NCBI GenBank assembly: GCA_001828605.1
Contig: MHZB01000026.1
Span: 1 to 59,733 of the forward strand
Direction of reading: 5' to 3'
Source: Planctomycetes bacterium RIFCSPLOWO2_12_FULL_50_35
GTDB taxonomy: Bacteria > Planctomycetota > Brocadiia > Brocadiales > Bathyanammoxibiaceae
Length of the DNA stretch: 59,733 bases
The notes under the pieces are model-generated. The model saw nothing but the letters and a program-made list of their open reading frames with translations, made no database searches and had not been told where the DNA came from. Positions 21,817 to 44,276 of the stretch are shown here, piece after piece; position 1 is the stretch's first letter, and every line of letters begins with the position of its first letter. Position numbers and translations under genes: made by a program.

Positions 21817-22581
21817 ATGTTTGTTGGTAGATTTGCAGCATTCCTTTTAATCACTTTGGTAGGTACGTTTCTGGTCCTTGCACCCACGTCTTCAGTTGAA
21901 GCTGCGGATAAACAAAAATATAAGTATACAGGGAACAAGGGTTGTAAGTGCCACCTGTCTCCCGGTGTTTGGGAGGGCGATGAGTGGAAGCAGATAGACC
22001 ATTCCAAGGCATTCAAGAGACTCCAGACTGACGAGGAGAAGAAGGACCCCAAATGTCTCAAGTGCCACACTACAGGCTACGGCGGGAAATTCAAAAACCC
22101 CAAGGAAACTTATCTTGAAGACGTTACCTGTGAGGCCTGTCACGGCCCCGGCGAGGCATACTCGGAGCTGAAGAACAACTACCAGGGCAAGGGCAAAAAG
22201 GCCTTTAACGAACTGCTCGAGAAAGACCCCATGGCGGCCCGCAAGGCGCAGTACGACGCAGGGCTTATTGTTGCCGGTATCAATAACGCATCTGGCAAGG
22301 TCAAGGACCAGTGTCTTGAGTGTCACTGGGAGGATCCTAACGACCCTGAAAAATGTCCGAAGTGCGACAAGGACGACAAAGGTAATCCTATCGCCATGAA
22401 CTTCGATGAGTATTTTAAGAAGGACGATCACAGAGACCTTGATACCATAGACGAGGTCATCAAGAAGATGAGCGATGGGGACAAGGCAAAGTGGAAAGGG
22501 TGCATTGAGAGGGACCCAATCCTTAACACGCCTATAAAGCCGGAAGCCAAGGGAAAGAAGAAAGCGGTAGCAGAGGATTAG
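21817..22581 (+). CDS. soluble tetrahaem cytochrome c with one contracted CXCH site (Kuenenia KsTH/kuste2854-like)
   Basis: 254 aa, signal peptide. Three CXXCH (CLKCH, CEACH, CLECH) plus CKCH, encoded by tgt aag tgc cac at about 21951..21962. First gene of the hzs-associated module. Confidence 0.8.
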   Translation: MFVGRFAAFLLITLVGTFLVLAPTSSVEAADKQKYKYTGNKGCKCHLSPGVWEGDEWKQIDHSKAFKRLQTDEEKKDPKCLKCHTTGYGGKFKNPKETYLEDVTCEACHGPGEAYSELKNNYQGKGKKAFNELLEKDPMAARKAQYDAGLIVAGINNASGKVKDQCLECHWEDPNDPEKCPKCDKDDKGNPIAMNFDEYFKKDDHRDLDTIDEVIKKMSDGDKAKWKGCIERDPILNTPIKPEAKGKKKAVAED

Positions 22582-22638
22582 TATCCGTTGGAATAACCTA
22601 CACAGCTTTGCTGGATAACATAGAGGAGGGTGGGTGTA

Positions 22639-23616
22639 ATGCGTGCAAGGAAGCGAGCGGGAATCTCTGGACTTTCTATTAGTCTACGGTCACTGCTCGC
22701 TTTCTTTTTGTTCTTTGCGTTTTGCAGCGGCGGCCTTGTTATCGCCCAGGAGATTGAGGACTGTATGGAGTGCCACGGCGACCCTGAAAAGGTTGGCAGA
22801 GTTGCGCGTGTAGACAGGGAGACGGGCGAGGTCAAGGTCGTGAACATGCTGGTGGAACAAGATGCATTTATGCAGTCCGCTCACGGCCGCTCAAAAGAAG
22901 GTTTTGTATGCATTGACTGTCATCAGGACCTTGACGGTGTCTACGGGGAGCACAAGCCGCTTTTAAACACCGTTGATTGCATTACCTTCTGTCACGATGA
23001 CCCGGCCGCAGAATTTCTCGAAAGTACCCATGTGGAGCACATGAAGGAGAAGGAGAAGACTCCTCCACGGTGTACGGACTGTCACATGGGGAAAAATTCA
23101 GCGCGAGAGACGCCGGTGGCAGAAGATGCGTTTCACCGCTCCAACGTAAATAAGACATGCGGTCAATGTCACGAGGATTACCTCTTTACTTACTGTACGA
23201 ACATGCACGGCCAGCTTTCAACGCTGGGCGTTCTGACGGACGAAGTGCCGAACTGCTATGACTGTCACGGCGGGCATGACATCCTCAAGTCAGATAACCC
23301 GGACTCCAATGTTGGGGAAAATCATAAAGTAGAGACGTGCGGGAAGTGCCATACGGGTGCAGGTAAAAATTTTGTAAAGCATATCGCTCATCCTGCCTTC
23401 AAGACCCGCAAATTCTATGCGGAGGCATATAAGACATTTACGGAAAAAGGTATCCTGGGAGTCCTTGCAGATCCTCAGTCTTACCTTGCTCTGGTATTCG
23501 TATTGTACATGGGAATAATTGCTCAGGCATTTTCTATGTTCGGAGGCCATGCACTTCTGATGTGGATTAGGACGCTGTTAGACGAGAGAAAGGGCGGGGG
23601 CGGACATGACCACTAA
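22639..23616 (+). CDS. membrane-anchored heptahaem cytochrome c (kuste2855-like)
   Basis: Six CXXCH (CMECH, CIDCH, CTDCH, CGQCH, CYDCH, CGKCH) plus one CX3CH (CITFCH). Signal peptide and a C-terminal TM helix YLALVFVLYMGIIAQAF. GAGGAGGG SD site. Confidence 0.8.
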   Translation: MRARKRAGISGLSISLRSLLAFFLFFAFCSGGLVIAQEIEDCMECHGDPEKVGRVARVDRETGEVKVVNMLVEQDAFMQSAHGRSKEGFVCIDCHQDLDGVYGEHKPLLNTVDCITFCHDDPAAEFLESTHVEHMKEKEKTPPRCTDCHMGKNSARETPVAEDAFHRSNVNKTCGQCHEDYLFTYCTNMHGQLSTLGVLTDEVPNCYDCHGGHDILKSDNPDSNVGENHKVETCGKCHTGAGKNFVKHIAHPAFKTRKFYAEAYKTFTEKGILGVLADPQSYLALVFVLYMGIIAQAFSMFGGHALLMWIRTLLDERKGGGGHDH

Positions 23617-24436
23617 CGGAAAACTATACCAGAGGTTCAGCCCATTTCACAGAATAACTCATTTTCTGTTGATTATAAGTTTCTTTGGTCTGGTGCTGAC
23701 GGGCATGCCCTTGGCCTTTCAAGACCAGGCGTGGGCGCGTTGGCTGTACGAAACCATGGGTGGCCATCCCACCGCCGGTTATATCCATCGCATATGCGCA
23801 GGGATGACGTTCTTCTGCGCCTTTATGCATTTTGCCTATTGCTCATATCTCGCGTTAGTGAAGAGGCATGCAGCGAACATAATCTGGGGTGCGGATGCCA
23901 TTATGATACAGCCAAGGGACGTTAAGGACATTGTTGCGGACCTAAAATGGCTCTTGGGGTTTGGACCACGTCCTGCCTTTGACAGGTGGATATACTGGGA
24001 AAAATTTGAATATCTATCCCTACTGTGGGGCACATTTGTGATGGCCCTTACGGGCCTAATGCTGTGGTTCCCGACGACTTTTTCTATATTCCTGCCTGGC
24101 TGGGCTATTGATATGGGTCTCATTGCCCATAGATACGAGGCAATCCTCGCCGCCGCATTCGTATTTACCATACATTTCATTCATACACACCTGCTTCCGG
24201 AGAAGGTGCCTGTGGACGAGGCCATGTTCACCGGCATCGTGAGCGAAGAGGAGATGCTGCATGAGAGGCCCAGGCATCACAAAAGGCTAAAAGAGGCGAA
24301 TTTACTCAAAAAGTACGAGACCGTACCAAATGTGCCGCTTTCGATAATATCAAAGATAATTGCCGTGCCTTTGCTCTTGATCGGGCTTTTCCTGACAAGC
24401 TTAATGGTTTCGTCACTATTACTTAGCCTGATATAG
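23606..24436 (+). CDS. integral-membrane b-type cytochrome (FdnI/HydC/PhsC-like quinone-interacting subunit; kuste2856-like)
   Basis: 276 aa, 5-6 TM helices with conserved His (HRITHFLL, IHRICAG, HRYEAI, HFIHTH). Overlaps the heptahaem gene by 11 nt. Confidence 0.75.
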   Translation: MTTNGKLYQRFSPFHRITHFLLIISFFGLVLTGMPLAFQDQAWARWLYETMGGHPTAGYIHRICAGMTFFCAFMHFAYCSYLALVKRHAANIIWGADAIMIQPRDVKDIVADLKWLLGFGPRPAFDRWIYWEKFEYLSLLWGTFVMALTGLMLWFPTTFSIFLPGWAIDMGLIAHRYEAILAAAFVFTIHFIHTHLLPEKVPVDEAMFTGIVSEEEMLHERPRHHKRLKEANLLKKYETVPNVPLSIISKIIAVPLLLIGLFLTSLMVSSLLLSLI

Positions 24437-24567
24437 TTTAGTGAGAAAACTGTGCGTATAATCCAGTGGGTCTGGGAGCGCTGGATACTGGTTATTCTGG
24501 GTCACTGCCGATTTTCCAGTACGTTGTAGTACACGCTGGCCTGGGTCAAAAAATCTGGAAAAAATTA

Positions 24568-24595
24568 TTGATTTATTGTGTATTGTGAGTATAAT
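24568..24595 (+). promoter_or_regulatory. strong sigma-70-like promoter ahead of the Cys-rich gene and hzsCBA
   Basis: TTGATT, 16-nt spacer, TATAAT, about 55 nt upstream of GTG 24653. Confidence 0.6.
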
Positions 24596-24652
24596 TGACG
24601 ACCACCTAACCTGAAACTGCCTGGAATAATAAAAAAGGAGGGGGGTGAGAAA

Positions 24653-25174
24653 GTGAAAAAGTTTGGAGTAATAAGCCTAATTGTGCTTCTTGCCTTCTGT
24701 TTTGTTGCTTCACAAGTAGTGCTGGCTGAGGAGAAGCCCTGCCCGAAGGCAAAAATCCTGAAGAAATTCTGGTGTGAACAGTGTAAAGAGGTCAGTGAAT
24801 TTTCGGACTGCTCAAACCAGGAATACATGTGGAACACTGCGGAACACAAAGCAAAAGAAGCGAATCCCCATTCGAATTTACCGCAAACATGGTCTTGTGC
24901 GACCGCAGGTTATTACTGCATAAAGTGTGGTAGGTGCTATCCAAAGCCCGGTATTTGTCTTGACTGCAACGATGATACGGAAAGCAGGAAGAGCTTCTCA
25001 AAGATATTGTTCAAGTGTCCAGACGGGCATGAGCACCACGAAGCGGGCACAGGCTTTAAGTTGAAAGAAGGTGCGTACGAAGAAGAGTTGGTGGACGCCG
25101 GTAATTGTCCAACGTGTGGGAAACATCTGGAGATGATTTGTACAAAGTCCGGAACCTGCCCACACACCACATAG
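24653..25174 (+). CDS. secreted Cys-rich protein (multiple CxxC pairs), hypothetical
   Basis: 173 aa. Signal peptide MKKFGVISLIVLLAFCFVASQVVLA. 16 Cys in the mature part, including CEQCK, CIKCGRC, CLDCN, CPTCG. No CXXCH. Strong SD site aaaggagggggg. Confidence 0.65.
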   Translation: MKKFGVISLIVLLAFCFVASQVVLAEEKPCPKAKILKKFWCEQCKEVSEFSDCSNQEYMWNTAEHKAKEANPHSNLPQTWSCATAGYYCIKCGRCYPKPGICLDCNDDTESRKSFSKILFKCPDGHEHHEAGTGFKLKEGAYEEELVDAGNCPTCGKHLEMICTKSGTCPHTT

Positions 25175-25223: not shown

Positions 25224-26363
25224 ATGAAAAAGAAGTCGTTGTGTAGCGGATTACTAAGTGCCGCGGTGCTCTCCTTGGCGCTTATTTTCATACAGACTGC
25301 TGATGCAGGATATATCCAAGGAACCCGCGTACAATCAGAACACCCCTCGCCATTCAGCATTTCGATCTCGCCTGACGGAAATACCCTTGCAGTTGCAAAC
25401 CAGTCGGGCCATAGTGTTACCTTCATAGACGCTAAGAGTCAGAAGGTGACGGGTGAGGTGGCAGTACATGATCAGCCAGAGTCGTCGGTCTTCTCGCGTG
25501 ACGGCAAGACTCTGTACGTCTGCAACGCAGAATCCGACAGCGTCTCAGTGGTTGATGTTGCTTCTAAGAAAGAGACCAAGGAAATTAAGGTAGGTGACTG
25601 GCCTTGCAATATAAAGCTTAGCAAGGACGGTTCCAAGGCCTATGTGTGTTGCTCTGGGAACATGTGGAACACGGTTGACGTCATTGACACCAGCCGCAAC
25701 GAGAGAGCCAGTGTGATTGAACTACCTGATTATGGTCCTAGGGATATTGCCATATCACCTGATGGTGGCACGGCTGCTTGTATTTGCGATACTGCAGGTT
25801 CCATCAACAGGGCCGTATGCTTTATAGACTTGGCCTCAAATAAGGTCGTAGACAGAAGGCCAATCCGTCACAGCGCCAATCTCAGGAGCGTTGTTTACTC
25901 TCCAGATGGACAGTATGTAGCGGTTACATACATGAAGCCGAAGAACTGGCTGCCTGTCTGCGAGGCCGAGAACGGCGAAGTATTTACGAACAATGTGGCC
26001 GTTATAGAGACAAAGCCCCATGGTAAGCTGGCCCAGCTCCCGTTGGACGAGCTTAACAACTACGATGGGACTCCGTACGGTCTGGCGATCGACCCGCAGG
26101 GAAAGTATCTCTACATTGCCGTACGTGGCATGCACAGGGTTACTATCCTGGACTTCGATAAGATTCGTGACATAATGATCAGCAATACCCAAGAGCAGCT
26201 TGACAGCTACACGGATGACCTGGATTTTGTAAACCACTATCTGGTGCAGAGGGTGCCCGTGGGCCTTGGACCAAGCTGGCTTGCACTTTCCCCAGACGGG
26301 AAGTATTGCTACGTGTGCAATTATTTCTCTAACAACGTGTCGGTTATAAAGACACCGTTATAA
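25224..26363 (+). CDS. hzsC: hydrazine synthase beta subunit (seven-bladed YVTN-type beta-propeller)
   Basis: 379 aa, signal peptide. Repeated D.K..YV.N..S..VSV.D blades (AVANQSGHSVTFID, YVCNAESDSVSVVD, YVCNYFSNNVSVI). Positioned immediately before hzsB-hzsA. Confidence 0.8.
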   Translation: MKKKSLCSGLLSAAVLSLALIFIQTADAGYIQGTRVQSEHPSPFSISISPDGNTLAVANQSGHSVTFIDAKSQKVTGEVAVHDQPESSVFSRDGKTLYVCNAESDSVSVVDVASKKETKEIKVGDWPCNIKLSKDGSKAYVCCSGNMWNTVDVIDTSRNERASVIELPDYGPRDIAISPDGGTAACICDTAGSINRAVCFIDLASNKVVDRRPIRHSANLRSVVYSPDGQYVAVTYMKPKNWLPVCEAENGEVFTNNVAVIETKPHGKLAQLPLDELNNYDGTPYGLAIDPQGKYLYIAVRGMHRVTILDFDKIRDIMISNTQEQLDSYTDDLDFVNHYLVQRVPVGLGPSWLALSPDGKYCYVCNYFSNNVSVIKTPL

Positions 26364-26425
26364 GGACTAAGTTAGTCCCTGAAACTGGATTGTGATAGGT
26401 TTTAGGAAAAGGAGGGGAAGATAGA

Positions 26426-27448
26426 ATGCGTAAGACGATTGTATTTCTTGCGATGGCTGCCCTCATGTTGTTCGGCTTTACGGCCGTTGGTGATGTGACG
26501 GCTGGTGAGGCCAAGGTGGTAGCCACCATACAGACTGGACCGGAGTGGACTCCTCCGGAGAGGGGTGAGCCTCTGACCATTCCTGAGGTTCATTACAGGG
26601 TAAAGCACTCTCCGTACAGGAGTGAGCTTGTGCGTTCAGGACAGTTTTTGTTTAACGATGCCAGCTGGGGTCTTCAGGGCGAGTATTCGTGCGCTGCCTG
26701 CCATTACGAGAGGGGACAGTCCACGGGGCTTATATGGGACCTTGGTGACGAGGGCTGGGGCTCCTGGAAGAACGTGAAGTACATCCGGGGGGGCCGTTAT
26801 CTGCCGCCCTTCAGGCACGAGGGTTTCACCGGTCATCCGGACGAGATAGTCGGTGCAACCAGTTCGATTGACAGGGTATGCGGTCGTGACCCTGGTTTTG
26901 TGTTCAGGAGCGAGAACTGGTCAGCAGACAGGCTTGAGGCGCTTATTGCCTACATAAGGAGCCTTGAGTATACCGGAAGTCCTTTCAGGAATGCCGACGG
27001 TTCGCTGACGGAGGTGCAGAAGAGGGGCATGAAGACGTTCTATGACCCCAAGGTAGGATGCGCCAACTGTCATCCTGGCGATCCGATGGACAAGAGAGGC
27101 ATGTTTGGAGACGGGCAGACCCATGATGTGGGGACTGGCCGTGTGGGGAAGTACGGGTTCAGGTCTACGCCTGGCGCCGTGTTTAACACGAAGGCGCTGG
27201 ATGCCGGAGTAGACCCGTATGGTGAGGAATATGACGTGCCGATTATCGGTCTTGATCTGGTGAAGGAGTTTGACACGCCGACGTTGAGGGACAGCTATGC
27301 ATCAGCGCCCTATTTCCACGACGGCAGTGCGCAGTCCTTGATACAGACCATAGACAACTCCGCTACGGAGAAGGACAAGCACGGAGTTACTTCTCATCTG
27401 ACAGAACAGGAACTCCAAGACGTGGTGGAGTTCATGAAGGCGCTATAA
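26426..27448 (+). CDS. hzsB: hydrazine synthase gamma subunit (di-haem, cytochrome c peroxidase/MauG-like)
   Basis: 340 aa, signal peptide. Two CXXCH (CAACH, CANCH). Contains the peptides GWGSWK and QTHDVGT, which I recall as conserved hzsB primer targets. Confidence 0.85.
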   Translation: MRKTIVFLAMAALMLFGFTAVGDVTAGEAKVVATIQTGPEWTPPERGEPLTIPEVHYRVKHSPYRSELVRSGQFLFNDASWGLQGEYSCAACHYERGQSTGLIWDLGDEGWGSWKNVKYIRGGRYLPPFRHEGFTGHPDEIVGATSSIDRVCGRDPGFVFRSENWSADRLEALIAYIRSLEYTGSPFRNADGSLTEVQKRGMKTFYDPKVGCANCHPGDPMDKRGMFGDGQTHDVGTGRVGKYGFRSTPGAVFNTKALDAGVDPYGEEYDVPIIGLDLVKEFDTPTLRDSYASAPYFHDGSAQSLIQTIDNSATEKDKHGVTSHLTEQELQDVVEFMKAL

Positions 27449-27723
27449 AGAGGAGCTAATGTGAAAAGAGAAGACGGTTGGTTACTACTCCTGGACCAGC
27501 CTGACCTCTCTCCTCTCTGAGGTTGCATGCGTAAAAAGGAGGGTTATCGCTTAGACGTTTTTGAGTACAGAGATTGACCTGGGTCGTTAGCTGACCGAAG
27601 ATTCGTTCGTCTAGTGCCTGCCTTTTAAGCTAATGACGGGTAGGGGTCTAAGACGAGAGGGGAAAAGGTAGTCTCTGGTATTATTATGAGTCGGAGCGGA
27701 CTGAAAGGAGGATGTAGCCAACC

Positions 27724-30171
27724 ATGAAGCAATGGTTATTAAGAACCACTGCCATCCTGTCGGTTGGGCTGTTGGTTGCCGCTGGCCATTACGGCAGTGC
27801 ATCGGCCGCCAACGTGAATATAGGTGGCCTAAAACCCGGGACGGCATACTATACCGATTATTGGGGAATCTCCAAAGAGTGGCAGGGTGACGTAAACACC
27901 ATCTTGTTTACACAGTCGCCCAAAACGGCTGCTGGTGACCCGTATCATCAGTATCCCAATTATATCCCCGTGGGTAGCCGTATAACATCAATGAGCCTCG
28001 GCAACAAGCAGGTAAAAGTGCTGACGGCCGATTTCTCAACTGCTTTTGACCCTTGTACGGATTGGGATGGCAAGAGGTTTGCGTTTGCCGCTATCAAGGG
28101 AAGTGGTAGCCCACAGATATGGGAAATGGGCATTGACGGCTCTAATCCCCGTCAGTTGACCGACCTTCCTGGAAGTTGCAGAAGCCCTGTCTATTATCCA
28201 GCCGGTGCGATAGAACCTGGCGAAGGAAACATAGTATGGCGTGATAGGTATTTCGAGGGTGACTGGAAGATCCGCGGAAAGGTCGAAAAGACAGGATTTA
28301 TCCTCTTTGCCTATGCTCCAGATGGCGTAAGGGATGAGTATTACAACCCATTCAGCTACCAGCTTTGGAGGATCGACCCCATTGGTGGAAAGATGCTGGA
28401 GCGTATCACCGGGGCAAAGATGAGCGGTATTGACTCCCCGAAGCTGAATACTGTAGTGGATAAGATAACCTACAACATGAGTTCCGACTTTGACCCCTGG
28501 CTGACCAGGGATGGAAGGGTCGGTTTCTCAAGTACACAGGCTTTGGGCAGCAGGATGTATGGTCATGGCAGGATTGCTATCTTTACCGATAACTGGGATG
28601 GTTCCTATCCTCAGCCGTTCTATGGTAACTGCGAGGGTGAGGGTGAGATAAACCACTCCAGGGTGCAGGCAAAGGAGCATCCTGATAATATGTTGATCTT
28701 CACGGAAGGCCCTTACCAGAATTATGGTGTTGGGCAGTTGTCGGCCGTAAAGTACTCAGCCCCGTTCCAGAGCAGCTACAGGCAAATCTCTGACGGAAAA
28801 GGCTGGTACAGGGATCCGTCCCCGCTTCCAGACGGCAGAATGGCTGTCTCTTATGCGGAGAGGGCGGACTACGGTATCTATTGGTTTGATTTCAATAAGG
28901 GAACCGCTGGTGAGCTGATTAACGACGACCCGAACTGGAACGACCACCAGCCAACGCCTGTTTACAGGAAGTACAAACCTCGTTGGATTAATACGTTTAC
29001 AGCTGGTAAGAACTTCGGCGTTACCGTTGTGACCTACCAGCCTTTCGACCAGGTAAAGATTGAAGGTTACCCGTCCTCTTGGGGAACAGCTTGCTGCTTT
29101 GACACCACCTATACACCTCCTCCAGGAAGTACCACCATCGGAGGTATTACGGTTGGTCCTTATCCATGGCAGTTGGCGAAGGCCCTGAAGCAGGGTGACG
29201 TGAAGGCCGTAAGGACCATGGGTGGCTATCAGTGCAAAGAGCCAGACCCGAAGAGGTTCGCCGTCGGTGCAGGAAAGCACCTGTTGGGCGGAAACCGTAC
29301 AAGCAGCAACTCGGGTACTTCATTTGCCCAGGTCTCAATATGGGGCTATCAGAACGTGTTTGACGACGGCTCTGTAGTAACATCGTGCCCGGCTGATTCA
29401 CCTGCGTTCGTGCAGACCCTGGACGAGAGAGGCATGGCCCTCTGCTCAGAGATGTGGTGGGGTTACCTTAGACCGTACGGTGGTAGAATATGCAGTGGCT
29501 GCCACGACGGTTCTTACAGGGGAAGGGCTTTCAAGAATGAGCATTTTAAGGCCCTTTACAACTGGTGGTATGATGACAGAAGCCACTATGACTCACCGTT
29601 CTTGTTTTCCAACGTGAGGATTGACAAGGATGGCTTATACAAGGGAGTAAAGCACGGTGACGACGTAGTGGTGCCTGCTGACGTGTATTACGGCGGTCCT
29701 TCTGGTACAACTTCTCAGCCGGTAGAAGGTCTTACCAGGGAGAAGTGGAGAACGGTTGACTTCAGAAGAGACATTCAGCCGATTATAGATTCAAAGTGTG
29801 CCAGCTGCCACAACGGGACAATCTCACTCGATTTGAGTGGTGGTGCAAACCCGGTGGATGTCGAGGGCGTCGCTGCTTTCAGCAATGCGTATAACAACTT
29901 GCTCGCAAGGCAGCCCGGCAAAGACCCGTCACTAGGTGGAAAGTACGTACATCCGGCTAGCGCCAGGAACAGCCTGCTCATCTGGAGGCTTTACGAAGAG
30001 ACGCTTAGTGATTTCGTACCAAGGCCTAATCCCTTCCCAGCCGAAGGTAGGCTGTTGCACAATAAGTTCCTCACCTCCGACGAGAGATATCTCTTTGTGG
30101 AGTGGGCGGACATTGGCGCACAGTGGGATAACATCCCAGGTCCTGACTTCTACCCGGGATACCGTGGTTAG
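27724..30171 (+). CDS. hzsA: hydrazine synthase alpha subunit
   Basis: 815 aa, signal peptide. CSGCHDGSY (Tyr at His+4) and CASCH. Blocks ILFTQSPKTAAGDPY, RDRYFEGDW, WINTFTAGKNFGVTVVTYQPFDQVK and SHYDSPF match my memory of anammox HzsA. Confidence 0.92.
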   Translation: MKQWLLRTTAILSVGLLVAAGHYGSASAANVNIGGLKPGTAYYTDYWGISKEWQGDVNTILFTQSPKTAAGDPYHQYPNYIPVGSRITSMSLGNKQVKVLTADFSTAFDPCTDWDGKRFAFAAIKGSGSPQIWEMGIDGSNPRQLTDLPGSCRSPVYYPAGAIEPGEGNIVWRDRYFEGDWKIRGKVEKTGFILFAYAPDGVRDEYYNPFSYQLWRIDPIGGKMLERITGAKMSGIDSPKLNTVVDKITYNMSSDFDPWLTRDGRVGFSSTQALGSRMYGHGRIAIFTDNWDGSYPQPFYGNCEGEGEINHSRVQAKEHPDNMLIFTEGPYQNYGVGQLSAVKYSAPFQSSYRQISDGKGWYRDPSPLPDGRMAVSYAERADYGIYWFDFNKGTAGELINDDPNWNDHQPTPVYRKYKPRWINTFTAGKNFGVTVVTYQPFDQVKIEGYPSSWGTACCFDTTYTPPPGSTTIGGITVGPYPWQLAKALKQGDVKAVRTMGGYQCKEPDPKRFAVGAGKHLLGGNRTSSNSGTSFAQVSIWGYQNVFDDGSVVTSCPADSPAFVQTLDERGMALCSEMWWGYLRPYGGRICSGCHDGSYRGRAFKNEHFKALYNWWYDDRSHYDSPFLFSNVRIDKDGLYKGVKHGDDVVVPADVYYGGPSGTTSQPVEGLTREKWRTVDFRRDIQPIIDSKCASCHNGTISLDLSGGANPVDVEGVAAFSNAYNNLLARQPGKDPSLGGKYVHPASARNSLLIWRLYEETLSDFVPRPNPFPAEGRLLHNKFLTSDERYLFVEWADIGAQWDNIPGPDFYPGYRG

Positions 30172-30201: not shown

Positions 30202-30241
30202 AAAGGCTGACGGGGCCTAGTTGCCCCGTCAGCCTTTTTTT
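30202..30241 (+). terminator. rho-independent terminator of hzsCBA
   Basis: Perfect 15-bp stem aaaggctgacggggc / gccccgtcagccttt, 6-nt loop, 7-T run. Confidence 0.85.
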
Positions 30242-30372: not shown

Positions 30373-30972
30373 ATGGTGATGGATTGTATAAAAAGGCTGT
30401 TATCAGTTGCTGTACTTGTAACTTTGATTTGGTCTCTTCCCGCCGCCTATGCAGCCTCAGTAGTAGAGAATGAAAGACGCTTGAGAGAAACCAAAAAATG
30501 TCCCAACTGCGACCTGCAAGGCGCCAGCCTTGCGTACGCTCACCTGGTTGACGCCGACCTGAGCGGTGCCATACTGCAGAGTGCCGACCTGCGCAATACT
30601 AATCTGAGCGGTGCGAACTTATACGGAGCTAACTTGGGCAATGCCAAGGTGAACAATGCTAACCTTACACGCGTTGACCTTAGGCGTGCCAATCTGGCTG
30701 GTGCGGACTTGAGCGCTGCCAACCTTCGTGCGGCTGACGTACGCGACGTTGACCTGCGTGGTGCCAACCTGCGTGGCGCAGATCTGACCCACACCGATCT
30801 GCGCGGCGCCGACCTTCGTGCAGCCGACCTGCGCGATGCTGAGATGACTCGTGCCGATTTGCGCACTGCCCAGGTAATTTACGCCGACATGCGCGGCGCC
30901 AAAGGTATTATCCCGGAGCATAAGGCGGATCTTCGCAATCGCGGTGCCAAGGTTGACGAATCTCCGTTCTAG
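30373..30972 (+). CDS. secreted pentapeptide-repeat protein
   Basis: Signal peptide MVMDCIKRLLSVAVLVTLIWSLPAAYA, then about 25 consecutive A(D/N)LxG-type pentapeptides (ADLSGAILQSADLRNTNLSGANLYGANL...). AAAGGAGGG SD site before ATG 30373. Confidence 0.85.
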   Translation: MVMDCIKRLLSVAVLVTLIWSLPAAYAASVVENERRLRETKKCPNCDLQGASLAYAHLVDADLSGAILQSADLRNTNLSGANLYGANLGNAKVNNANLTRVDLRRANLAGADLSAANLRAADVRDVDLRGANLRGADLTHTDLRGADLRAADLRDAEMTRADLRTAQVIYADMRGAKGIIPEHKADLRNRGAKVDESPF

Positions 30973-31099: not shown

Positions 31100-31127
31100 T
31101 TGACAGCAAATGGTTTCTTAGTATAAT
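31100..31127 (+). promoter_or_regulatory. consensus sigma-70 promoter of the HAO-like gene
   Basis: TTGACA, 16-nt spacer, TATAAT (both hexamers perfect). About 160 nt upstream of ATG 31294. Confidence 0.65.
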
Positions 31128-31293
31128 TCAGCGATATTTCGTGTTGAGGTCAAGTGGAGGGAACTTGAGAGGAGGGGTTTGTACGGTTTCTAAACTCTTG
31201 CCACAGAAGTCCTTGCTAGCCCCAAAAGACATCTTAGATAACCTTCACTTAGAATTACTAAAGAAGAGCATAGAGAAAGGAGACAAGCCGGGT

Positions 31294-32973
31294 ATGAAAA
31301 TTCTTAGGGGACCTTTAGCATACTGCACCATTCTGGCGATGGTGGGGCTTCTCCTGTTAGGTAGTCAGGGTGTGTCTTTGGGCAACCCGGATCCTACGTT
31401 TCAGGAGGTAGCGTCATCGATTTATGGCCAGCCTGTGGGCAAGGGTGATAGTGGTGACCTATATGTGTTTGGTCTCACCTCGGAGTATGTCCAGCCGGAG
31501 TACGTAGACGGTGTAGGACCGTACAAGTCATTTACAAAATTCTTACCTGTAGTGCGTTGGTACAGACCGCAGGAGTACTGGGTTAACAAGAACAGTGTGG
31601 AAGGTGTGTTTAAGACGGAGGAGTGTGTGCTCTGTCACTCCGTGCAGACGCCGACCATTGTGAACGACTGGAGAGCCAGCGGTCACGCCAACCCGAGACC
31701 GGACGCCGAGGCCGCTAAAAAGTATTATCTAGGCGACCCGGCCGCGATGGCCCAGAAGGCAGATGCTATAGCAAAGAAAATCGGTGAAGATATAACGGTA
31801 GTTGGATGTGACAAGTGTCACGGAAACGACCACCAGAAGCTTCAGATGCCTACCTGGCAGACATGCCAGAAGTGCCATCCCGAGCAGACGGCCGGGCATC
31901 GTTCCGGCGGACTTGGCTCGCACACCCATGCATGGACGGTGAACGTGTTGGAGTTCTCCTGGCAGCTTGGGAAACCACCGGAGGAAGTCAACGGATGTCA
32001 GGCATGTCACGCCATAATAGAGAACAGGTGCGACGGCTGTCACACCAGACACAAGTTTAACGCTGCTGAGTCCAGACAGGCCCACGCATGTAGGTACTGC
32101 CACCTGGGTGTAGACCACAGGGAGTGGGAGATGTACAGCACCTCCATGCACGGCATACTTCATGACGAGGAGCAGTCTATACAGGACTGGACAAAGCCTC
32201 TGAAGAAGGGTAATCACAGGGTACCTGGCTGTGCGTACTGCCACATGCAGGAGGGCGACCACAACGTACAGAGGTTTGGTACAATCTATAGTGACATGGG
32301 TATGTTTGAGGTAGACCGTGGCGCGCCGAAATGGGCGGCAAAGAGGGAGGCATGGATAAAGAAGTGTATGGATTGCCATTCTCCCAACTTTGCAAGGGAT
32401 CAGTTGAGGTCGATGGACTATGGTGTAAGGTTGAGCTTTACCAAGTGGCGTGAGGCCGCTAACGTTATCGTGGGTTGTTTCCTCGGAGGCGAGCTGGACC
32501 CCATGCCGACGGACCTTGCTCCGGACTGGTACGGTCACTATACCTTCAGTCTGTTGCCAACCGGAGACCCCAGGTTTTATAACGTTTCCGACCTAGAGAG
32601 GATGGGGCTTGAGATGATTTGTTATCTCACGGATAACGTGTACAAGGCCCTCGCCCACATGGCTATTTACAACGCCACTTACGGGACGGGCGGTGCCTTT
32701 GAGCAGGACCGTATGCTGATTCAGATTAAGGCTGAGGCCAGCCGTCTGAAGAGGTTTAAGGCCCTTGAGCAAAAGGTCGGAATTGAGTACAAGGCTCAGC
32801 CGTATTGGAAGCATGGCGAGTACTTGGACCTTCTGACCGGTTGGAAGAGGAAGGAAGGCGACGTGGACCTTGCCTGGTTCCAGAGGAACGATATCCCGCA
32901 TCGTCATAACGCCGATTCGGGTCTGGAGGCCCATGTTCCAGAGGTGCACGGAAGTCCTGTTCACGGTCAGTAG
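31294..32973 (+). CDS. octahaem hydroxylamine-oxidoreductase-like protein (HAO/HOX family, all eight sites canonical)
   Basis: 559 aa from ATG 31294 (SD site agaaaggag), signal peptide. Eight CXXCH with HAO spacing, including CDKCHGNDH, CDGCHTRHKF, CRYCHLGVDHREW, CAYCHMQEGDH. Candidate cross-link Tyr in NATYGTG. Confidence 0.85.
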   Translation: MKILRGPLAYCTILAMVGLLLLGSQGVSLGNPDPTFQEVASSIYGQPVGKGDSGDLYVFGLTSEYVQPEYVDGVGPYKSFTKFLPVVRWYRPQEYWVNKNSVEGVFKTEECVLCHSVQTPTIVNDWRASGHANPRPDAEAAKKYYLGDPAAMAQKADAIAKKIGEDITVVGCDKCHGNDHQKLQMPTWQTCQKCHPEQTAGHRSGGLGSHTHAWTVNVLEFSWQLGKPPEEVNGCQACHAIIENRCDGCHTRHKFNAAESRQAHACRYCHLGVDHREWEMYSTSMHGILHDEEQSIQDWTKPLKKGNHRVPGCAYCHMQEGDHNVQRFGTIYSDMGMFEVDRGAPKWAAKREAWIKKCMDCHSPNFARDQLRSMDYGVRLSFTKWREAANVIVGCFLGGELDPMPTDLAPDWYGHYTFSLLPTGDPRFYNVSDLERMGLEMICYLTDNVYKALAHMAIYNATYGTGGAFEQDRMLIQIKAEASRLKRFKALEQKVGIEYKAQPYWKHGEYLDLLTGWKRKEGDVDLAWFQRNDIPHRHNADSGLEAHVPEVHGSPVHGQ

Positions 32974-33000
32974 TACAGCTGGAATCATTTGCTAAGAACC

Positions 33001-33040
33001 AGGAGGGTAGCAGGGATTTTTGCTACCCTCCTGTCATTTT
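33001..33040 (+). terminator. rho-independent terminator after the HAO-like gene (just before trpB)
   Basis: Perfect 12-bp stem aggagggtagca / tgctaccctcct, 8-nt loop, tail gtcatttt. Confidence 0.7.
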
Positions 33041-33078
33041 GGTGTGGTGTAGTTTTTTACTTAGGAGGTGCTTATATA

Positions 33079-34320
33079 ATGGGCACAGGTGTTGCAAAAT
33101 CTGTAACAACGCAAAAGCTTGTAAATGAGAAGGGGCGTTTCGGAAGGTTCGGAGGCAGGTACGTCCCTGAGACGTTGATTCCCGCGCTTGAACAGCTTGA
33201 GCGGGAGTATCTTGCCGCTAAGAAGGACAGGGACTTCCAGAAGGAATTAAACTATTATCTGAAGGAATATGTAGGGAGACCATCACCTTTATATCTGGCC
33301 GAAAGACTGGGGAAGCGTTTGGGTGATGTGAAGGTATATTTAAAGAGAGAGGACTTAAATCACACGGGCGCCCACAAGATAAATAATACTTTAGGTCAGG
33401 CACTTCTGGCGAAGAGGATGGGCAAGCGGCGAATAATCGCAGAGACAGGCGCCGGGCAGCACGGTGTAGCCACGGCCACGGCGTGCGCTATGTTTGGCCT
33501 GGAGTGCGAGGTATATATGGGAGAGGAGGATATGCGACGTCAGTCCCTGAACGTATTCCGCATGAAGCTCCTCGGCACGAACGTTATACCGGTTAAGACC
33601 GGTTCAATGACGTTAAAAGACGCTACCAACGAGGCTCTGAGGGATTGGATGGCCTCGGTTGGAAATACTCACTATATATTGGGTTCCGTCGTAGGTCCAC
33701 ACCCGTATCCTACAATGGTAAGGGATTTTCAGTCTATAATTGGCAAGGAAGCAAGGGACCAGATCCTTGAAAAAGAAAATCGGCTTCCTGACTGTTTAAT
33801 TGCCTGTGTGGGTGGCGGCAGTAATTCAATAGGGCTGTTCCACCCGTTCATTGAGGACGAAGGTGTGCGGATGATAGGTGTGGAGGCTGGCGGTATCGGC
33901 TTAAAAGTTGGTGAGCATGCAGCAACACTTTCTTACGGAAAGGTAGGGGTCTTGCACGGCAGTATGAGCTATGTGCTTCAGGATGATGACGGTCAGACTC
34001 AGCCAGTTCACTCCATATCGGCCGGCCTGGACTATCCAGGTGTGGGTCCTGAGCATAGTTACCTCAAGGACATAGGCAGGGCAGAGTACGTGTCTGTGAC
34101 TGATGCCGAGGCGCTGGAGGCCTTCCAGGCATGTGCCAGGTCAGAAGGCATAATTCCCGCACTTGAGGCGGCACATGCCCTGGCTTATACCATGAAGGTT
34201 GCACCCTCTTTAGACAGGGGGAGCGTAATTCTTGTCTGCCTTTCCGGCAGTGGAGATAAGGACTCCTTTGAGGTTGCTGCAAAGCTGGGAATAAAGATTA
34301 ATTCACCAGCTCATGGATAA
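33079..34320 (+). CDS. trpB: tryptophan synthase beta chain
   Basis: [21 protein letters not shown] (PLP lysine), GGGSN. AGGAGG precedes ATG 33079; the track ORF extends upstream through the terminator. Confidence 0.95.
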
Positions 34321-35125
34321 CAGGATTGACCAGAGGTTTAAGCTACTAAAGAGCAAAAAGGAATCCGCCTTTATCCCCTTTATAACCGCCGGTGATCCGA
34401 GCCTCGAGGTTACCAGGGGACTTATACTGGAACTAGAAAGATGTGGCGCCGACATCATAGAGCTCGGCATCCCTTTTTCTGACCCTATCGCAGACGGCCC
34501 CGTCATACAGGCTTCCTATTATAGAACACTTGCCAAGGGACTCAGGGTAGAAGACGTCTTCCGCTTAGTTAAAGATGTAAGAAAGGAGACGGATATTCCC
34601 ATCGTTTCTATGGTGTCCTATAGTATCGTCTTCAAAATTGGTGTGGAGAAATTTTTGGTAAGTGCCAAGGAGTCCGGTTTCGATGGCGCCACTATCCCGG
34701 ACTTACCCGTAGAAGAAAGTCAGGCGCTAATTCGTTCTGCAAGCGAGAAAGATTTTCGTATAGTTTGCTTCGCCGCCCCGACCACAACCCCTGACCGCAT
34801 GGAACAAATTGCAAAAGGCACACAGGGTTTTCTATACTACATGTCCGTTGTAGGGATAACCGGTGTAAGAGACAGTTTACCCAAGGACATGAAGGAGAAT
34901 ATCTGTAGATTAAAGAGGTTGACAGATAAGCCTATTGCACTTGGCTTTGGCATCTCAACGCCTGAGCAGGCCAAGATAGCAGGCAGTGTGGCTGACGGTG
35001 TGATTGTGGGCAGTGCCCTGATAAAAGAGTTGGAGCGCAATATCGACAAGTCCCCGTCCGAGATTATAAAGGCGGTTGGACAGCTTGCAGGGAAACTGTC
35101 TGCGGGTGCCAAGGGCAGGGTTTAG
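34313..35125 (+). CDS. trpA: tryptophan synthase alpha chain
   Basis: 270 aa. [27 protein letters not shown]. Overlaps the trpB stop by 8 nt. Confidence 0.95.
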
Positions 35126-35185
35126 ACGTAATTTTGGCATTCTGTAAGGTATTTGGTGCCGCAAGGTAATGGGTTGGAAATTCTG

Positions 35186-36400
35186 ATGGGCAAAGCGGAC
35201 ATTTCGTCAAGATCGATAGAGATAGCCCCTGGTGTATTTTGGGTCGGTGTACTGGACCGCAACCGCACTATCTTCGACAGTTTTATGAGCCTTCCTTACG
35301 GGACCACGTACAACGCCTACCTGGTTGTCGGCAGAGACAAAATAGCGCTGATTGACACGGTCAGTTCTGAGTTCGGCGACGTCCTTATAAAGAAGATAAG
35401 CGACGTGGTGAGACCGGAAGATATAGATTACTTGGTGATGAACCATGCTGAACCGGACCACGGTGGGTCAATACCGAAGGTGTTATCTATTGCCAAAGAG
35501 GCCAGGCTGGTTGCCTCAAATAAGGGGGTGGGCGTAGCAAAACTATTCTACGACGTCCAGGAAGAAAGGGTCACAGCCGTGGGAGACGGGGCGCATATTG
35601 ACCTTGGCGGCAAGACACTGAGATTTATAGACGCACCTTGGCTTCATTGGCCGGAGACAATGTTTACCTACTGCGAAGAGGACAAGGTCCTTTTCAGTTG
35701 TGATTTCCTCGGCGCCCACGTGGCGGCAGATAAGATATACGAAGACGAAGTTGGCGACATAGTGCTTGCCGAGGCCAAGAGATACTATGCCGAGATTATG
35801 ATGATATTTATAAACCCTCTCAGAAAGGCGCTCGATAAGTTGGATGGGTTAGACATTAAGATAATAGGTCCAAGTCATGGGCCTGTGTACCGGAACCCAC
35901 GGCGCATACTGGATGCCTATAACAAGTGGGCAAAGGGCCCTTTGGAAAAGAAGGCGGTAGTTATTTATGTGTCCATGTATGGCAGTACCGCTGCACTGGA
36001 GAAGACGGTGGTTAAGGCCATGGAAGAAGAGGGGATTGATGTGGTAGCTTACAACATGGTAAGGTCAGATGTCTCCCACATAGTTACGGACCTTGTGGAT
36101 TCCAGTGCCATAGTCTTCGGCTCACCGTCCTTTTACGGAGGTATGCATCCCAGGCTTGCCTCCTCGGTGGAGCTAATTAGGAGTATCAAGCCTCGGGGTA
36201 AGGTAGTGGCAGTGTTCGGTTCTTATGGTTGGGGAGGTGGAGCCGCTAAAGAAATAAAGGCCAGGCTGGCGCCGGCCGGCTTCGATGTGATAGAGACATT
36301 GGAAATAAAGGGCCCTCCCAGGGAAGAAGCTCTGGATAAGGCCCGTGCCCTTGGCAAATTGGTCGCAGATAAGGTGAAGGAAATCTTGGCGAAGAATTAG
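35186..36400 (+). CDS. flavodiiron protein (metallo-beta-lactamase plus flavodoxin; O2/NO reductase type)
   Basis: About 404 aa. Di-iron motif NHAEPDHGG, C-terminal flavodoxin-like domain (VVIYVSMYGSTA...). Confidence 0.88.
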   Translation: MGKADISSRSIEIAPGVFWVGVLDRNRTIFDSFMSLPYGTTYNAYLVVGRDKIALIDTVSSEFGDVLIKKISDVVRPEDIDYLVMNHAEPDHGGSIPKVLSIAKEARLVASNKGVGVAKLFYDVQEERVTAVGDGAHIDLGGKTLRFIDAPWLHWPETMFTYCEEDKVLFSCDFLGAHVAADKIYEDEVGDIVLAEAKRYYAEIMMIFINPLRKALDKLDGLDIKIIGPSHGPVYRNPRRILDAYNKWAKGPLEKKAVVIYVSMYGSTAALEKTVVKAMEEEGIDVVAYNMVRSDVSHIVTDLVDSSAIVFGSPSFYGGMHPRLASSVELIRSIKPRGKVVAVFGSYGWGGGAAKEIKARLAPAGFDVIETLEIKGPPREEALDKARALGKLVADKVKEILAKN

Positions 36401-36788: not shown

Positions 36789-36928
36789 GTGTCTTTCTTA
36801 GCCACAGATACCAATCTATACATATAAAGTATAGTAGTATTTGGAAAGGAGGTGTAAGGTAATTGGGGAAAGGAGGAGGAGTTACAAGGTCTATGAATAG
36901 ATCTAGGAAAGGAGGAGGACGTTTTAAC

Positions 36929-38701
36929 ATGCCTAAAACGTTGAAGGTACTGCTAATCTTAGGTTTTGTTGCAGGCCTGTGTTTCATAAGCTCCTTCAAC
37001 GGTGGGTTTGATAATGATGTGTATGCAGTAGAAATCATTACCCACTGGGTGCCTCACGAAGTATATGGTATGCCAGGCGAGCCAGATAATAATGGAAAGG
37101 TTTACTTCTCTGGTCTTGGCGCCAAGTACATGGGTGCACCGAAGGGAGGACCGCCCTGGCCTGGTAAGTACAGTAGGTTTTTTAGGACATTACCTGCCTA
37201 TCGCTATTACATTCCTGACGGTATGTATAATAGAGAGGACCTCCGTCCACCGAACCCGATAAAGGGTGTCTTCCGCAATGAGCAGTGCGTGGGGTGTCAT
37301 GAGGTTTTGACTCCCGGAATTGCAAGAGACTGGAAGATGAGCAGGCATGCTTCAGTTGAGCCCGCTCCGGTAGGTTGTCCGACCTGTCATAACTCTGACC
37401 ACCAGAAGCTGCATATGCCCAGCTCAAAGACCTGTGGTACAGAGGATTGTCACAGCACGCAGTACACACAGCAGATGGAAGGTGGAATTGGTTCTCACGG
37501 ATCCTGCGCCAGCTTTGCTCAGGTAGAGTGCGCATGGTCCATCGAGAGACCACCAGGAGATACTGCCGGTTGTGTGCTTTGTCACACCAGTGCTGAGGAG
37601 AGATGTTCGACTTGTCACGCAAGGCACCGTTTCGATCCCAGGACAGCCAGGAAGTCTGAGCAGTGCAAGACCTGCCACTGGGGTAAAGATCACCGTGACT
37701 GGGAGGCCTATGACATATCCATTCACGGCGTAGTGTATCAGACCGGCAAGTGGGACCCGAAGCTGTTTGACTGGGAACAAAAGTTGTCTGAGGCAACTTA
37801 CACCGGTCCGACATGCGCATATTGCCACATGCGTGGTGGTCATCACAACGTGCAGAAGCTGTCCACGGTCTACACAAGTATGGGTATGTCCATGTGCGAC
37901 CGCGGCGCTCCTCTCTGGCAGGAAAAGAGAGATACATGGGCATCAGTTTGTGACGATTGTCACTCACCCAGATTCGGCAAAGAAATCCTTCAGTGTATGG
38001 ACGAGGCAGTTAAGGATGCCGCCCTTAAGTATCGTGAGACCTTCAAGGTTGCAGAAGATCTCTACAGGGACGGTGTACTAGACCCCATGCCTAAGGACTT
38101 GGCGCCAGACTGGTCTGGTCAGCACATCTGGAGTCTTAAGATCGGCGCTTATCACGGCAACGAGTTTGGTGGAAAGACAGGCGAGTCCGGTGAGTTCAGG
38201 ATGTCCAACTGTACCAACGTAGAGCGTCTGTGCTTCGAGAGCGTTGGTTACTGGCAGACCTATATATTCAAGGGTATGGCTCACGGCAGCTGGAACGACG
38301 CCACATACTGCGATGGCTCCTTTGGTATGGACCGTTGGCTGGTGGACGTCAAGACGCAGGCTTCCAGGGCCAGAAGGCTTGCAGCCCTTGAGAAGAAGGT
38401 CGGAATCACCTGGGTCCCAGAAGACTTCTGGAGACACGGTGAGTGGCTTGACCAGCTTAGTGGTTGGAAGATTGTCAGGGAGTATCCTGGCAAGACCATG
38501 TTTGACCTCTGCCCAGAGCCGGGTTGGCTTGATACACATCATGCACCAGCCGCTGAGGTGGAGTATATCGAGAGAATGATTAAGCAGCTCGGTATGAAGG
38601 CTGGTAGGCATTCTGTTCACGGCCACGGTCATGAGGAGCATGGCACTCAAGGTCCTGAGACGCATGAACACGAATCGCCTGAACATACTCACGCCAGATA
38701 G
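36929..38701 (+). CDS. hdh: hydrazine dehydrogenase (octahaem HAO-like, hzo cluster-1 type)
   Basis: Seven CXXCH plus a CX4CH third site (CGTEDCH). CKTCHW and GQHIWS peptides (recalled hzo primer targets). Signal peptide MPKTLKVLLILGFVAGLCF. In-frame alternative starts at 36863 and 36893. Confidence 0.88.
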   Translation: MPKTLKVLLILGFVAGLCFISSFNGGFDNDVYAVEIITHWVPHEVYGMPGEPDNNGKVYFSGLGAKYMGAPKGGPPWPGKYSRFFRTLPAYRYYIPDGMYNREDLRPPNPIKGVFRNEQCVGCHEVLTPGIARDWKMSRHASVEPAPVGCPTCHNSDHQKLHMPSSKTCGTEDCHSTQYTQQMEGGIGSHGSCASFAQVECAWSIERPPGDTAGCVLCHTSAEERCSTCHARHRFDPRTARKSEQCKTCHWGKDHRDWEAYDISIHGVVYQTGKWDPKLFDWEQKLSEATYTGPTCAYCHMRGGHHNVQKLSTVYTSMGMSMCDRGAPLWQEKRDTWASVCDDCHSPRFGKEILQCMDEAVKDAALKYRETFKVAEDLYRDGVLDPMPKDLAPDWSGQHIWSLKIGAYHGNEFGGKTGESGEFRMSNCTNVERLCFESVGYWQTYIFKGMAHGSWNDATYCDGSFGMDRWLVDVKTQASRARRLAALEKKVGITWVPEDFWRHGEWLDQLSGWKIVREYPGKTMFDLCPEPGWLDTHHAPAAEVEYIERMIKQLGMKAGRHSVHGHGHEEHGTQGPETHEHESPEHTHAR

Positions 38702-38736: not shown

Positions 38737-38781
38737 AAGAGCTGCACAGATGGGTAGTTGCCTCTGTGCAGCTCTTTTTTT
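38737..38781 (+). terminator. rho-independent terminator of hdh
   Basis: 14-bp perfect stem aagagctgcacaga / tctgtgcagctctt, 12-nt loop, 7-T run. Confidence 0.85.
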
Positions 38782-38802
38782 ATAGAATGGAGTTTTGCTG
38801 AG

Positions 38803-44236: not shown

Positions 44237-44276
44237 ATTGAGGTTCAGGAAAAGAGGGTTTAGATAAGCCGTGGGC

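Follow-up and report, generated by a model that had tools for sequence, protein, structure and literature searches.

Does the gene run hzsC-hzsB-hzsA on contig MHZB01000026.1, a 59,733-nt stretch of DNA from Planctomycetes bacterium RIFCSPLOWO2_12_FULL_50_35 (assembly GCA_001828605.1) which we analysed whole and refer to as the window, encode a true hydrazine synthase (HZS), and if so, to what kind of organism does it belong? HZS is the signature enzyme of anaerobic ammonium oxidation (anammox), which accounts for much of the fixed nitrogen lost worldwide, and is to our knowledge the only enzyme that makes free hydrazine. The initial annotation of this locus had called it the only N-N bond-forming route to hydrazine, a statement which stands for free N2H4 but needs narrowing, as other N-N bond-forming enzymes exist (PMC11705231). 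From comparisons of sequence, we consider that the three genes are very probably the hydrazine synthase operon of an uncultured groundwater anammox bacterium, a member of the Candidatus (Ca.) Bathyanammoxibiaceae. The elements at issue are as follows:

25224-26363, plus strand: hzsC (classical name; HZS beta), 379 residues
26426-27448, plus strand: hzsB (classical name; HZS gamma), 340 residues
27449-27723, plus strand: hzsB-hzsA spacer, 275 nt, with the hzsA ribosome-binding site at its 3' end
27724-30171, plus strand: hzsA (HZS alpha), 815 residues
30202-30244, plus strand: intrinsic terminator of the hzs transcription unit, with a 15-bp stem, a 6-nt loop and a T-run

The gene lengths and coordinates had been given exactly in the initial annotation, and the terminator lies where it had been placed: its stem (30202-30237) has 10 G-C pairs among 15 bp and is followed by the T-run, and its fold has a z-score of -4.8, with 0/200 shuffles folding equally well. 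Each of the three genes is preceded by an AGGAGG-type ribosome-binding site. Open reading frames (ORFs) called on the minus strand within the hzs genes, such as those at 25836-26237 and 28756-29280, were rejected as shadow ORFs of strongly supported plus-strand genes.

A word on names is required. The classical Kuenenia usage has hzsC as kuste2859 (the propeller), hzsB as kuste2860 (the dihaem protein) and hzsA as kuste2861 (PMC3482989, PMC6423088), whereas in PDB, in NCBIfam and in Zhao et al. the propeller is beta or HzsB and the dihaem protein is gamma or HzsC; the locus tags are, moreover, swapped in at least one preprint. Given this conflicting use of HzsB and HzsC, annotations of HZS would do best to name the protein type explicitly, and we use alpha, beta and gamma for the proteins from here on.

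We compared the three subunits with all PDB chains (phmmer), with the curated equivalog models of NCBIfam and with Pfam. HzsA matches the alpha chain of the Kuenenia stuttgartiensis HZS structure (5C2V_A) with 1187 bits and an E-value of 0 over residues 33-813, and no other PDB chain is found at E <= 0.001. The dihaem gamma subunit aligns gap-free with 5C2V_C over residues 27-340 (E 5.5e-174), its second-best match being a dihaem enzyme at 1e-7, and the propeller beta subunit aligns gap-free with 5C2V_B over the 350 residues 29-378 (E 9.9e-161), ahead of a generic propeller at 1e-35. E-values of this order against the HZS crystal chains exclude chance. All three proteins also exceed the cut-offs of their equivalog models: 1557 bits against 800 for HzsA (NF052339, hydrazine_alpha), 724 against 560 for the propeller subunit (NF052340, hydrazine_beta) and 701 against 625 for the dihaem subunit (NF052341, hydrazine_gamma). 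It was on its YVTN-type repeats that the first protein had been recognised as a propeller, and these are confirmed (TIGR02276, E 8e-29) in a seven-bladed protein devoid of CXXCH; with full-length matches to 5C2V and every NCBIfam cut-off passed, the assignment of the three consecutive proteins to the HZS heterotrimer is likewise upheld. Pfam, by contrast, finds generic propeller and CCP_MauG domains together with HZS_alpha and nothing else in the hzs products, so that annotation at the level of domains would look unremarkable.

Hydrophobic, signal-peptide-like N-termini are present in all three proteins (residues 1-28 of beta, 1-26 of gamma and 1-28 of alpha), and the residues next to them line up with the start of the crystal chains, at residue 1 in beta and gamma and at approximately residue 1 in alpha. 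Compared with the Kuenenia enzyme (kuste2859-2861; 5C2V/5C2W), the window offers the same subunits in the same gene order, collinear over their full length; against the Kuenenia hertensis locus (L005), identity is ~63% for alpha, 65% for beta and 76% for gamma.

Do these proteins also keep the residues that bind the cofactors? Ligand identities were taken from published work (PMC12758564; bioRxiv 10.1101/2023.01.22.525020) and mapped via alignments. At haem alpha-I, C590, C593 and H594 align with Kuenenia C583, C586 and H587, the His being a ligand of Zn and not of iron, whilst S597 and Y598 align with S590 and Y591, the Tyr being the ligand of iron; Cys303, the second Zn ligand, aligns with C303 of Kuenenia. 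The residues that would coordinate haem alpha-I are thus all present in HzsA, including Tyr598 at +4 from His594, a spacing already pointed out in the initial annotation. For haem alpha-II, C692, C695 and H696 are conserved in the C-terminal cytochrome c domain. H779 aligns with Kuenenia His772, a position invariant in 36/36 anammox HzsA, and reportedly that of the distal haem alpha-II ligand (Dietl et al. 2015).

In the gamma subunit, C89, C92 and H93 of haem gamma-I align with Kuenenia C102, C105 and H106; C152 corresponds to Kuenenia Cys165, which makes the third covalent link to the haem, and D155 to Asp168 of the distal site. The peptide DRVCGRDPGF is invariant in 6/6 gamma sequences, and C212, C215 and H216 of haem gamma-II are present. 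The tunnel loop of beta, P239-F254 (245-260 in Kuenenia), reads PKNWLPVCEAENGEVF and is identical to that of Kuenenia at 15 of its 16 positions. This loop includes Glu247, which corresponds to Kuenenia Glu253. A conserved Mg-binding Glu has been described in the beta insertion loop of blade 6 (PMC12758564). All the published haem, axial, Zn, third-Cys, Asp168 and tunnel-loop residues are thus conserved in the predicted proteins, and the haem motifs, the His-Zn and Tyr-Fe arrangement of haem alpha-I, Cys303, the third Cys link, Asp168 and the beta loop are features held in common with Kuenenia.

The shorter motifs quoted in the initial annotation are likewise all there: CAACH (residue 89), GWGSWK (110), CANCH (212) and QTHDVGT (231) in gamma, and YFEGDW (176), CSGCHDGSY (590), SHYDSPF (620) and CASCH (692) in alpha. 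It had called four of these peptides diagnostic, and for two of them we can put this to numbers: YFEGDW occurs in 36/36 and SHYDSPF in 35/36 of the sampled anammox HzsA, whereas both occur in 0/14 of the HzsA-related proteins from outside anammox, which makes this near-universal pair diagnostic in the sample examined. With best hits to HZS chains rather than to generic propeller or CCP proteins, cut-offs passed and every published cofactor ligand found on mapping, the outcomes that the initial annotation had itself named as speaking against HZS did not appear.

To which anammox lineage, then, does this enzyme belong? HzsA is 62-66% identical to its counterparts in Kuenenia and Brocadia, 56-60% to those of Scalindua and Anammoxibacter, and 72-86% to a set of proteins from groundwater metagenome-assembled genomes (MAGs). 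In a neighbour-joining tree of HzsA (100 bootstraps, with HzsA-related proteins as the root), P0001, L001 and P0002 form a group with the window (bootstrap 100), and this group has L002, L003, L007, L009 and P0003 as its sister (joint bootstrap 99); together they make up a basal clade outside all other anammox families, the monophyly of the latter being supported at 73%. L002 is MAG 52_288, named Ca. Bathyanammoxibiaceae (PMC9723696). L008, a fragment of Bin_313, is 99% identical to the window, and the window's GC content of ~50% agrees with the 50.0% and 49.5% of Bin_313 and Bin_133, the former of which is listed as Ca. Bathyanammoxibiaceae (PMC10467342). The mates of the protein in its 90%-identity cluster are Ca. 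Bathyanammoxibius sp., Ca. Avalokitesvara rifleensis and Planctomycetes bacterium RIFCSPLOWO2_02_FULL_50_16. There are no rRNA or tRNA genes in the window. Judged by its HzsA, the organism falls within the basal family Ca. Bathyanammoxibiaceae (PMC9723696, PMC10467342). Kuenenia, Brocadia, Jettenia and Scalindua, which the initial annotation had named for comparison, are ruled out as the genus by HzsA identities of 57-66% together with the tree.

This family is not new to the literature. Its HZS cluster, haem motifs and beta loop have already been reported as conserved (PMC9723696), and its HZS, hydrazine dehydrogenase (HDH) and hydroxylamine oxidase (HOX) have been called 'highly conserved' (bioRxiv 10.1101/2023.04.27.538623). 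An identical HzsA is encoded in NCBI assembly GCA_001824525.1 (MHXR01000038.1), and on at least 23 contigs in many independent ENA, JGI and Logan assemblies; over 13.6 kb the window itself matches one ENA contig letter for letter (100%), and its identity to NCBI scaffold MHXR01000038.1 is 99.97%. Set against the HZS clusters of Ca. Bathyanammoxibiaceae and aquifer MAGs, it has the same HzsA clade and the same GC, and differs in nothing substantive; it is a gap-free version. As identical proteins are in NCBI and the family's cluster is published (PMC9723696; bioRxiv 10.1101/2023.04.27.538623), what we describe is not a discovery but a known enzyme system, correctly identified, in a lineage already on record, in keeping with the initial remark that the system was already in the literature.

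Two observations on the related assemblies may be useful to others. Scaffold MHXR01000038.1 (L010) carries runs of N at the equivalents of window positions 31210-31441 and 39505-39640, both of which the window sequence resolves; the first removes the 5' end of the downstream gene hox, which in the deposited record is called as 502 residues. In addition, many independent assemblies of the clade break shortly 5' of hzsA: the contigs L001, L003, L014 and L015 all end 190-370 nt from it, in or near the hzsB-hzsA spacer. In published MAGs of this group the hzs genes are often split at contig or scaffold edges (PMC10467342), and these breaks match the published remarks on HZS subunits at separate scaffold edges; their recurrence 5' of hzsA points to heterogeneity between strains, or to repetition or duplication of sequence there.

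If the window comes from an anammox bacterium, are the other enzymes of hydrazine metabolism at hand? The genes directly downstream of the hzs unit are the following:

30373-30972: gene for an exported pentapeptide-repeat protein, between the hzsA terminator and hox (Pfam E 2e-38)
31294-32973, plus strand: HOX, orthologue of kustc1061, octahaem with eight CXXCH (PDB 4N4J, E 7e-247)
32989-35125: trpB and trpA, between hox and hdh
35153-36400: flavodiiron protein resembling the anaerobic nitric oxide (NO) reductase flavorubredoxin, below cut-off
36863-38701, plus strand: HDH (NCBIfam hydrazine_HDH, 1180 bits against a cut-off of 900; PDB 6HIF, E 0)
38758-40953: TPR protein of 731 residues, after HDH

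The octahaem protein that adjoins hzsA, 1.1 kb 3' of it, was considered as the HDH, but scores 388 bits against the HDH cut-off of 900 and is of the HOX (kustc1061) type. Its gene starts at 31294, where there is a ribosome-binding site, the mechanically called ORF start at 31048 being too early, and a TTGACA-16-TATAAT promoter with a 12/12 match (31100-31127) lies ~165 nt 5' of this likely ATG. HDH itself is encoded 6.7 kb 3' of hzsA, so that HZS, HOX and HDH all fall inside 17 kb, and it is with HOX and HDH adjoining HZS that the initial identification of the organism as anammox holds. Scalindua and KSU-1 are already known to have an HAO gene directly 3' of hzsA (PMC3655542), and the order hzsA-hox-trpB is common to all the sister loci and Scalindua. 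Kuenenia differs, as kustc1061 lies elsewhere in its genome (PMC3655542). Besides the window, only its two nearest relatives (L015, L016) have the pentapeptide-repeat gene, at 43-55% identity, which marks it as fast-evolving; L001, L014, the sister group and Scalindua lack it. The flavodiiron protein, placed beside an NO-consuming enzyme, could serve in scavenging NO or O2.

The locus also extends upstream, and here the description of a complete three-gene operon may have to be enlarged. The relevant elements are:

21817-22581, plus strand: trihaem cytochrome c, counterpart of kuste2854, 254 residues, 3 CXXCH (Pfam Cytochrome_C554, E 7e-10)
22630-23616, plus strand: heptahaem cytochrome c, counterpart of kuste2855, 328 residues, 6 CXXCH plus CITFCH (multihaem Pfam and synteny)
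23606-24436, plus strand: FdoI/FdnI-like membrane cytochrome b, counterpart of kuste2856, 276 residues
24568-24595, plus strand: sigma-70-like promoter candidate TTGATT-16-TATAAT, 58 nt 5' of orf173, 10/12 consensus
24653-25174, plus strand: orf173, exported-type Cys-rich protein of 173 residues, 49 nt 5' of hzsC

In Kuenenia, kuste2854-2861 run in the order trihaem, heptahaem, fdoI-like, sigma-54 regulator, unknown protein and hzsCBA (PMC6423088, PMC12053348), and the upstream trihaem, heptahaem and FdoI-like proteins and the unknown protein are all shared with the window (PMC6423088). Of these, kuste2854 has been proposed as a soluble carrier that brings electrons to HZS, and kuste2856 as the site where quinol is oxidised and electrons bound for HZS enter. 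The trihaem protein occupies the same position in Scalindua (SCAELEC01, L006; 56% identity) and in the JP1 lineage (L007; 65%), and the cytochrome b is 57-72% identical to the proteins at the equivalent position in these two loci; the latter protein has a weak match to TIGR01583, the formate dehydrogenase gamma subunit (E 8e-10, below cut-off), and a weak one to Pfam Ni_hydr_CYTB. The sigma-54 response regulator of the kuste2857 type is absent from the window cluster (24437-24652), as it is from the sister locus L007, whereas in Scalindua L006 it is present (5338-6756) between the cytochrome b gene and the Cys-rich ORF. The electron-transfer module, a kuste2858-like ORF, hzs, HAO/HOX and trpB otherwise follow one another in the window as they do in Scalindua (PMC3655542).

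In an alignment of 12 homologues, 15 Cys and 4 His of the Cys-rich protein encoded by orf173 are invariant; the protein belongs to no Pfam or NCBIfam family. A search for homologues returned 11 close relatives, all from Brocadiales or Planctomycetota MAGs, and the gene is always found directly 5' of hzsC, in Bathyanammoxibiaceae, the JP1 lineage (L007) and Scalindua (L006) alike. It is the positional equivalent of Kuenenia kuste2858, an 'unknown protein' detected in the Kuenenia proteome with a signal ~100-fold below that of the HZS subunits (PMC6423088), and this difference in abundance makes it unlikely to be a structural subunit. Perhaps it is an accessory or maturation factor specific to HZS, although we regard this as a rather doubtful proposition; in such a role it may deliver Zn to haem alpha-I, or take part in forming the third Cys-haem link or the Tyr ligation. 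An AlphaFold2 model built from the 12-sequence alignment was discarded as unusable (mean predicted local distance difference test score, pLDDT, 48; predicted template modelling score, pTM, 0.27).

Of the alternatives to a plain three-gene operon, the one that fares best is a refinement of it, in which the unit would be a four-gene operon, orf173-hzsC-hzsB-hzsA, within a cluster of the eight-gene type that includes the electron-transfer module. The position of orf173, 49 nt before hzsC, with the three module genes before it, argues that these genes belong to the conserved cluster; there is no terminator-like site in the 49-nt gap, the sole promoter-like site lies 5' of orf173 (24568-24595), and the gene keeps its place directly 5' of hzsC from Bathyanammoxibiaceae to Scalindua, as does kuste2858, seen in the proteome, in Kuenenia (PMC6423088). 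An orf173-hzsCBA transcript would plausibly start at this sigma-70-like site, and orf173 would then be co-transcribed with hzsCBA. On the other side, these arguments are read from DNA, the promoter scan is weak evidence (21 consensus sites against 11.7 expected), and the ~100-fold lower signal of kuste2858 speaks against a stoichiometric subunit (PMC6423088). No sigma-54 -24/-12 site is present in the intergenic regions relevant to hzs, and the number of matches of this type across the window (53) is close to the 57 expected by chance. We see the case for the four-gene unit as evenly balanced. What can be said of the 'complete operon' of the initial annotation is that its three genes are indeed intact, but that the description understates the unit, leaving out orf173 and the electron-transfer module upstream and HOX and HDH downstream.

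Could the cluster instead be a non-functional relic, or an artefact of assembly or binning, such that the host would not be identified as anammox? The window is a contig from a metagenome, and the hzs genes of the group's MAGs are often split at contig edges (PMC10467342; L001, L003, L014 and L015). Yet the ORFs are intact, their ribosome-binding sites strong and all their ligands in place; independent assemblies of several samples gave this DNA again, at 99.9-100% identity over 13-22 kb; the contig carries dnaA, trpBA and tricarboxylic acid (TCA) cycle genes at a uniform ~50% GC; and the hzsA-hox-trpB order recurs in other Brocadiales, including Scalindua. We therefore hold a relic or artefact to be very improbable.

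More improbable still is an HZS-like complex of a non-anammox bacterium, with an HzsA-related alpha, a fused beta-gamma multihaem protein and a function other than the synthesis of hydrazine: such homologues exist (P0028-P0041, 26-35% identical, with the Pfam HZS_alpha domain; PMC12758564), but the window HzsA is 57-86% identical to anammox HzsA and only ~32% to them, keeps the Ser597-Tyr598 that is deleted in four aligned HzsA-related proteins (in agreement with PMC12758564), has Cys303 where these have Phe and a His in the Kuenenia His772 column where they have Arg, Glu or Gly, and contains the YFEGDW and SHYDSPF missing from 14/14 of them, whilst beta and gamma are separate genes without extra N-terminal haems, the equivalog cut-offs of NCBIfam are passed, and HDH and HOX are nearby. 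What the window protein does have in common with the HzsA-related proteins of non-anammox bacteria and archaea (PF18582, clades I-III of PMC12758564) is the HZS_alpha middle domain, the alpha-I CXXCH and the propeller architecture; they show, besides the ~32% identity, a large deletion at about residues 430-455.

Returning to a hydrazine synthase of Ca. Bathyanammoxibiaceae, how would it work? The following steps are modelled on the biochemistry of Kuenenia. The three precursors would be exported to the anammoxosome, where the subunits would come together in an (alpha-beta-gamma)2 complex. Menaquinol would supply the electrons, which could pass through the module of FdoI-like cytochrome b and heptahaem protein to the trihaem carrier, and from there via the surface haem gamma-II to haem gamma-I, at which NO and three electrons would yield hydroxylamine. 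The hydroxylamine would travel through an intra-protein tunnel, gated by the beta loop, to haem alpha-I, where a very low-potential, Tyr-ligated ferric haem would combine it with ammonia to give N2H4 (bioRxiv 10.1101/2023.01.22.525020); recent experiments corroborate this second half-reaction (bioRxiv 10.64898/2026.02.25.707902). HDH would then oxidise hydrazine to N2, and HOX would return leaked hydroxylamine to NO.

Several points weigh against too ready an acceptance of this picture, and of the operon as read here. Catalysis of NO (or NH2OH) + NH4+ -> N2H4 has been assayed for Kuenenia HZS only (bioRxiv 10.64898/2026.02.25.707902), and activity, localisation and complex assembly in Ca. Bathyanammoxibiaceae would follow by homology. 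The window is, as noted, a metagenomic contig. The lineage is without NirS and NirK, which bears on the source of NO (PMC10467342; bioRxiv 10.1101/2023.04.27.538623); in the absence of the sigma-54 regulator, regulation may differ; and the promoter and the proposed co-transcription of orf173 are drawn only from a 10/12 consensus match. An insertion of nine residues in alpha is to be counted here too.

This insertion, PPGSTTIGG, lies at about residues 468-476 of HzsA (nt ~29125-29151) and is common to the whole basal clade, including the sister group, and absent from Brocadiaceae, Scalinduaceae, Anammoxibacteraceae and the HzsA-related proteins; it could serve as a signature of the lineage. The hzsB-hzsA spacer is also distinctive: at 275 nt it is unusually long, a trait that the closest clade shares, whereas the sister group has ~137-149 nt and the loci of Kuenenia, Brocadia and Scalindua have ~70-115 nt (roughly 70-90 nt for Kuenenia and Brocadia). 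Five clade members are alike in the 5' third of the spacer, which can fold into a hairpin of 8 bp (27476-27501) whose loop, ACUACUCCUG, contains CUCCU; it is followed by a CU-rich tract (27506-27511) that may pair with a Shine-Dalgarno (SD)-like GGAGGG at 27538-27543. RNAalifold on the five spacers gives 14 pairs, 3 of them with compensatory changes, the covariation term being ~0 given so few sequences. Over its full 275 nt the spacer shows no significant structure (z -1.8), it holds no plausible ORF, and Rfam has no match anywhere in the window. We can speculate that the hairpin, with its anti-SD-like CUCCU loop, might tune the stoichiometry of alpha to beta-gamma. The insertion, the spacer, the pentapeptide-repeat gene and orf173 are, all in all, minor lineage-specific details.

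Compared with Kuenenia, then, the window has a cluster without the kuste2857 sigma-54 response regulator, an alpha with nine additional residues, a longer hzsB-hzsA spacer, a GC of ~50% and hox directly 3' of hzs. Scalindua, in turn, has Glu in place of the Zn-ligand Cys303, and its alpha is only 57-60% identical; beta and gamma are separate genes in the window, and separate too in Scalindua SCAELEC01, where stop codons stand between the frames.

The remaining genes that we noted in the window are these:

10197-14429: 1410-residue protein with a duplicated acyl-CoA dehydratase-activase (BcrA/D-like) domain
16359-17759: dnaA, ~4 kb 5' of the HZS cluster, on the same strand as the cluster genes
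42837-44042: a further multihaem cytochrome c
44271-50379: aconitase, malate dehydrogenase, and SdhA/SdhB-type flavoprotein and Fe-S subunits
51861-54629: pyruvate phosphate dikinase

The cumulative GC skew rises steadily, with no switch in the part of the window from dnaA to HZS; if a replication origin lies near dnaA, the HZS genes, among the most highly expressed in anammox bacteria, would sit at a high-dosage, co-directional site.

To conclude, HZS beside HOX and HDH firmly marks this contig as of the anammox type, and as belonging to the uncultured groundwater and marine-sediment family Ca. Bathyanammoxibiaceae. The earliest-branching anammox family, without the sigma-54 regulator, already has Cys303 to bind Zn and the Tyr to bind iron, encodes beta and gamma in separate genes and has hzsA linked to hox, and it is for annotation and for evolutionary comparison that this locus will be of use.

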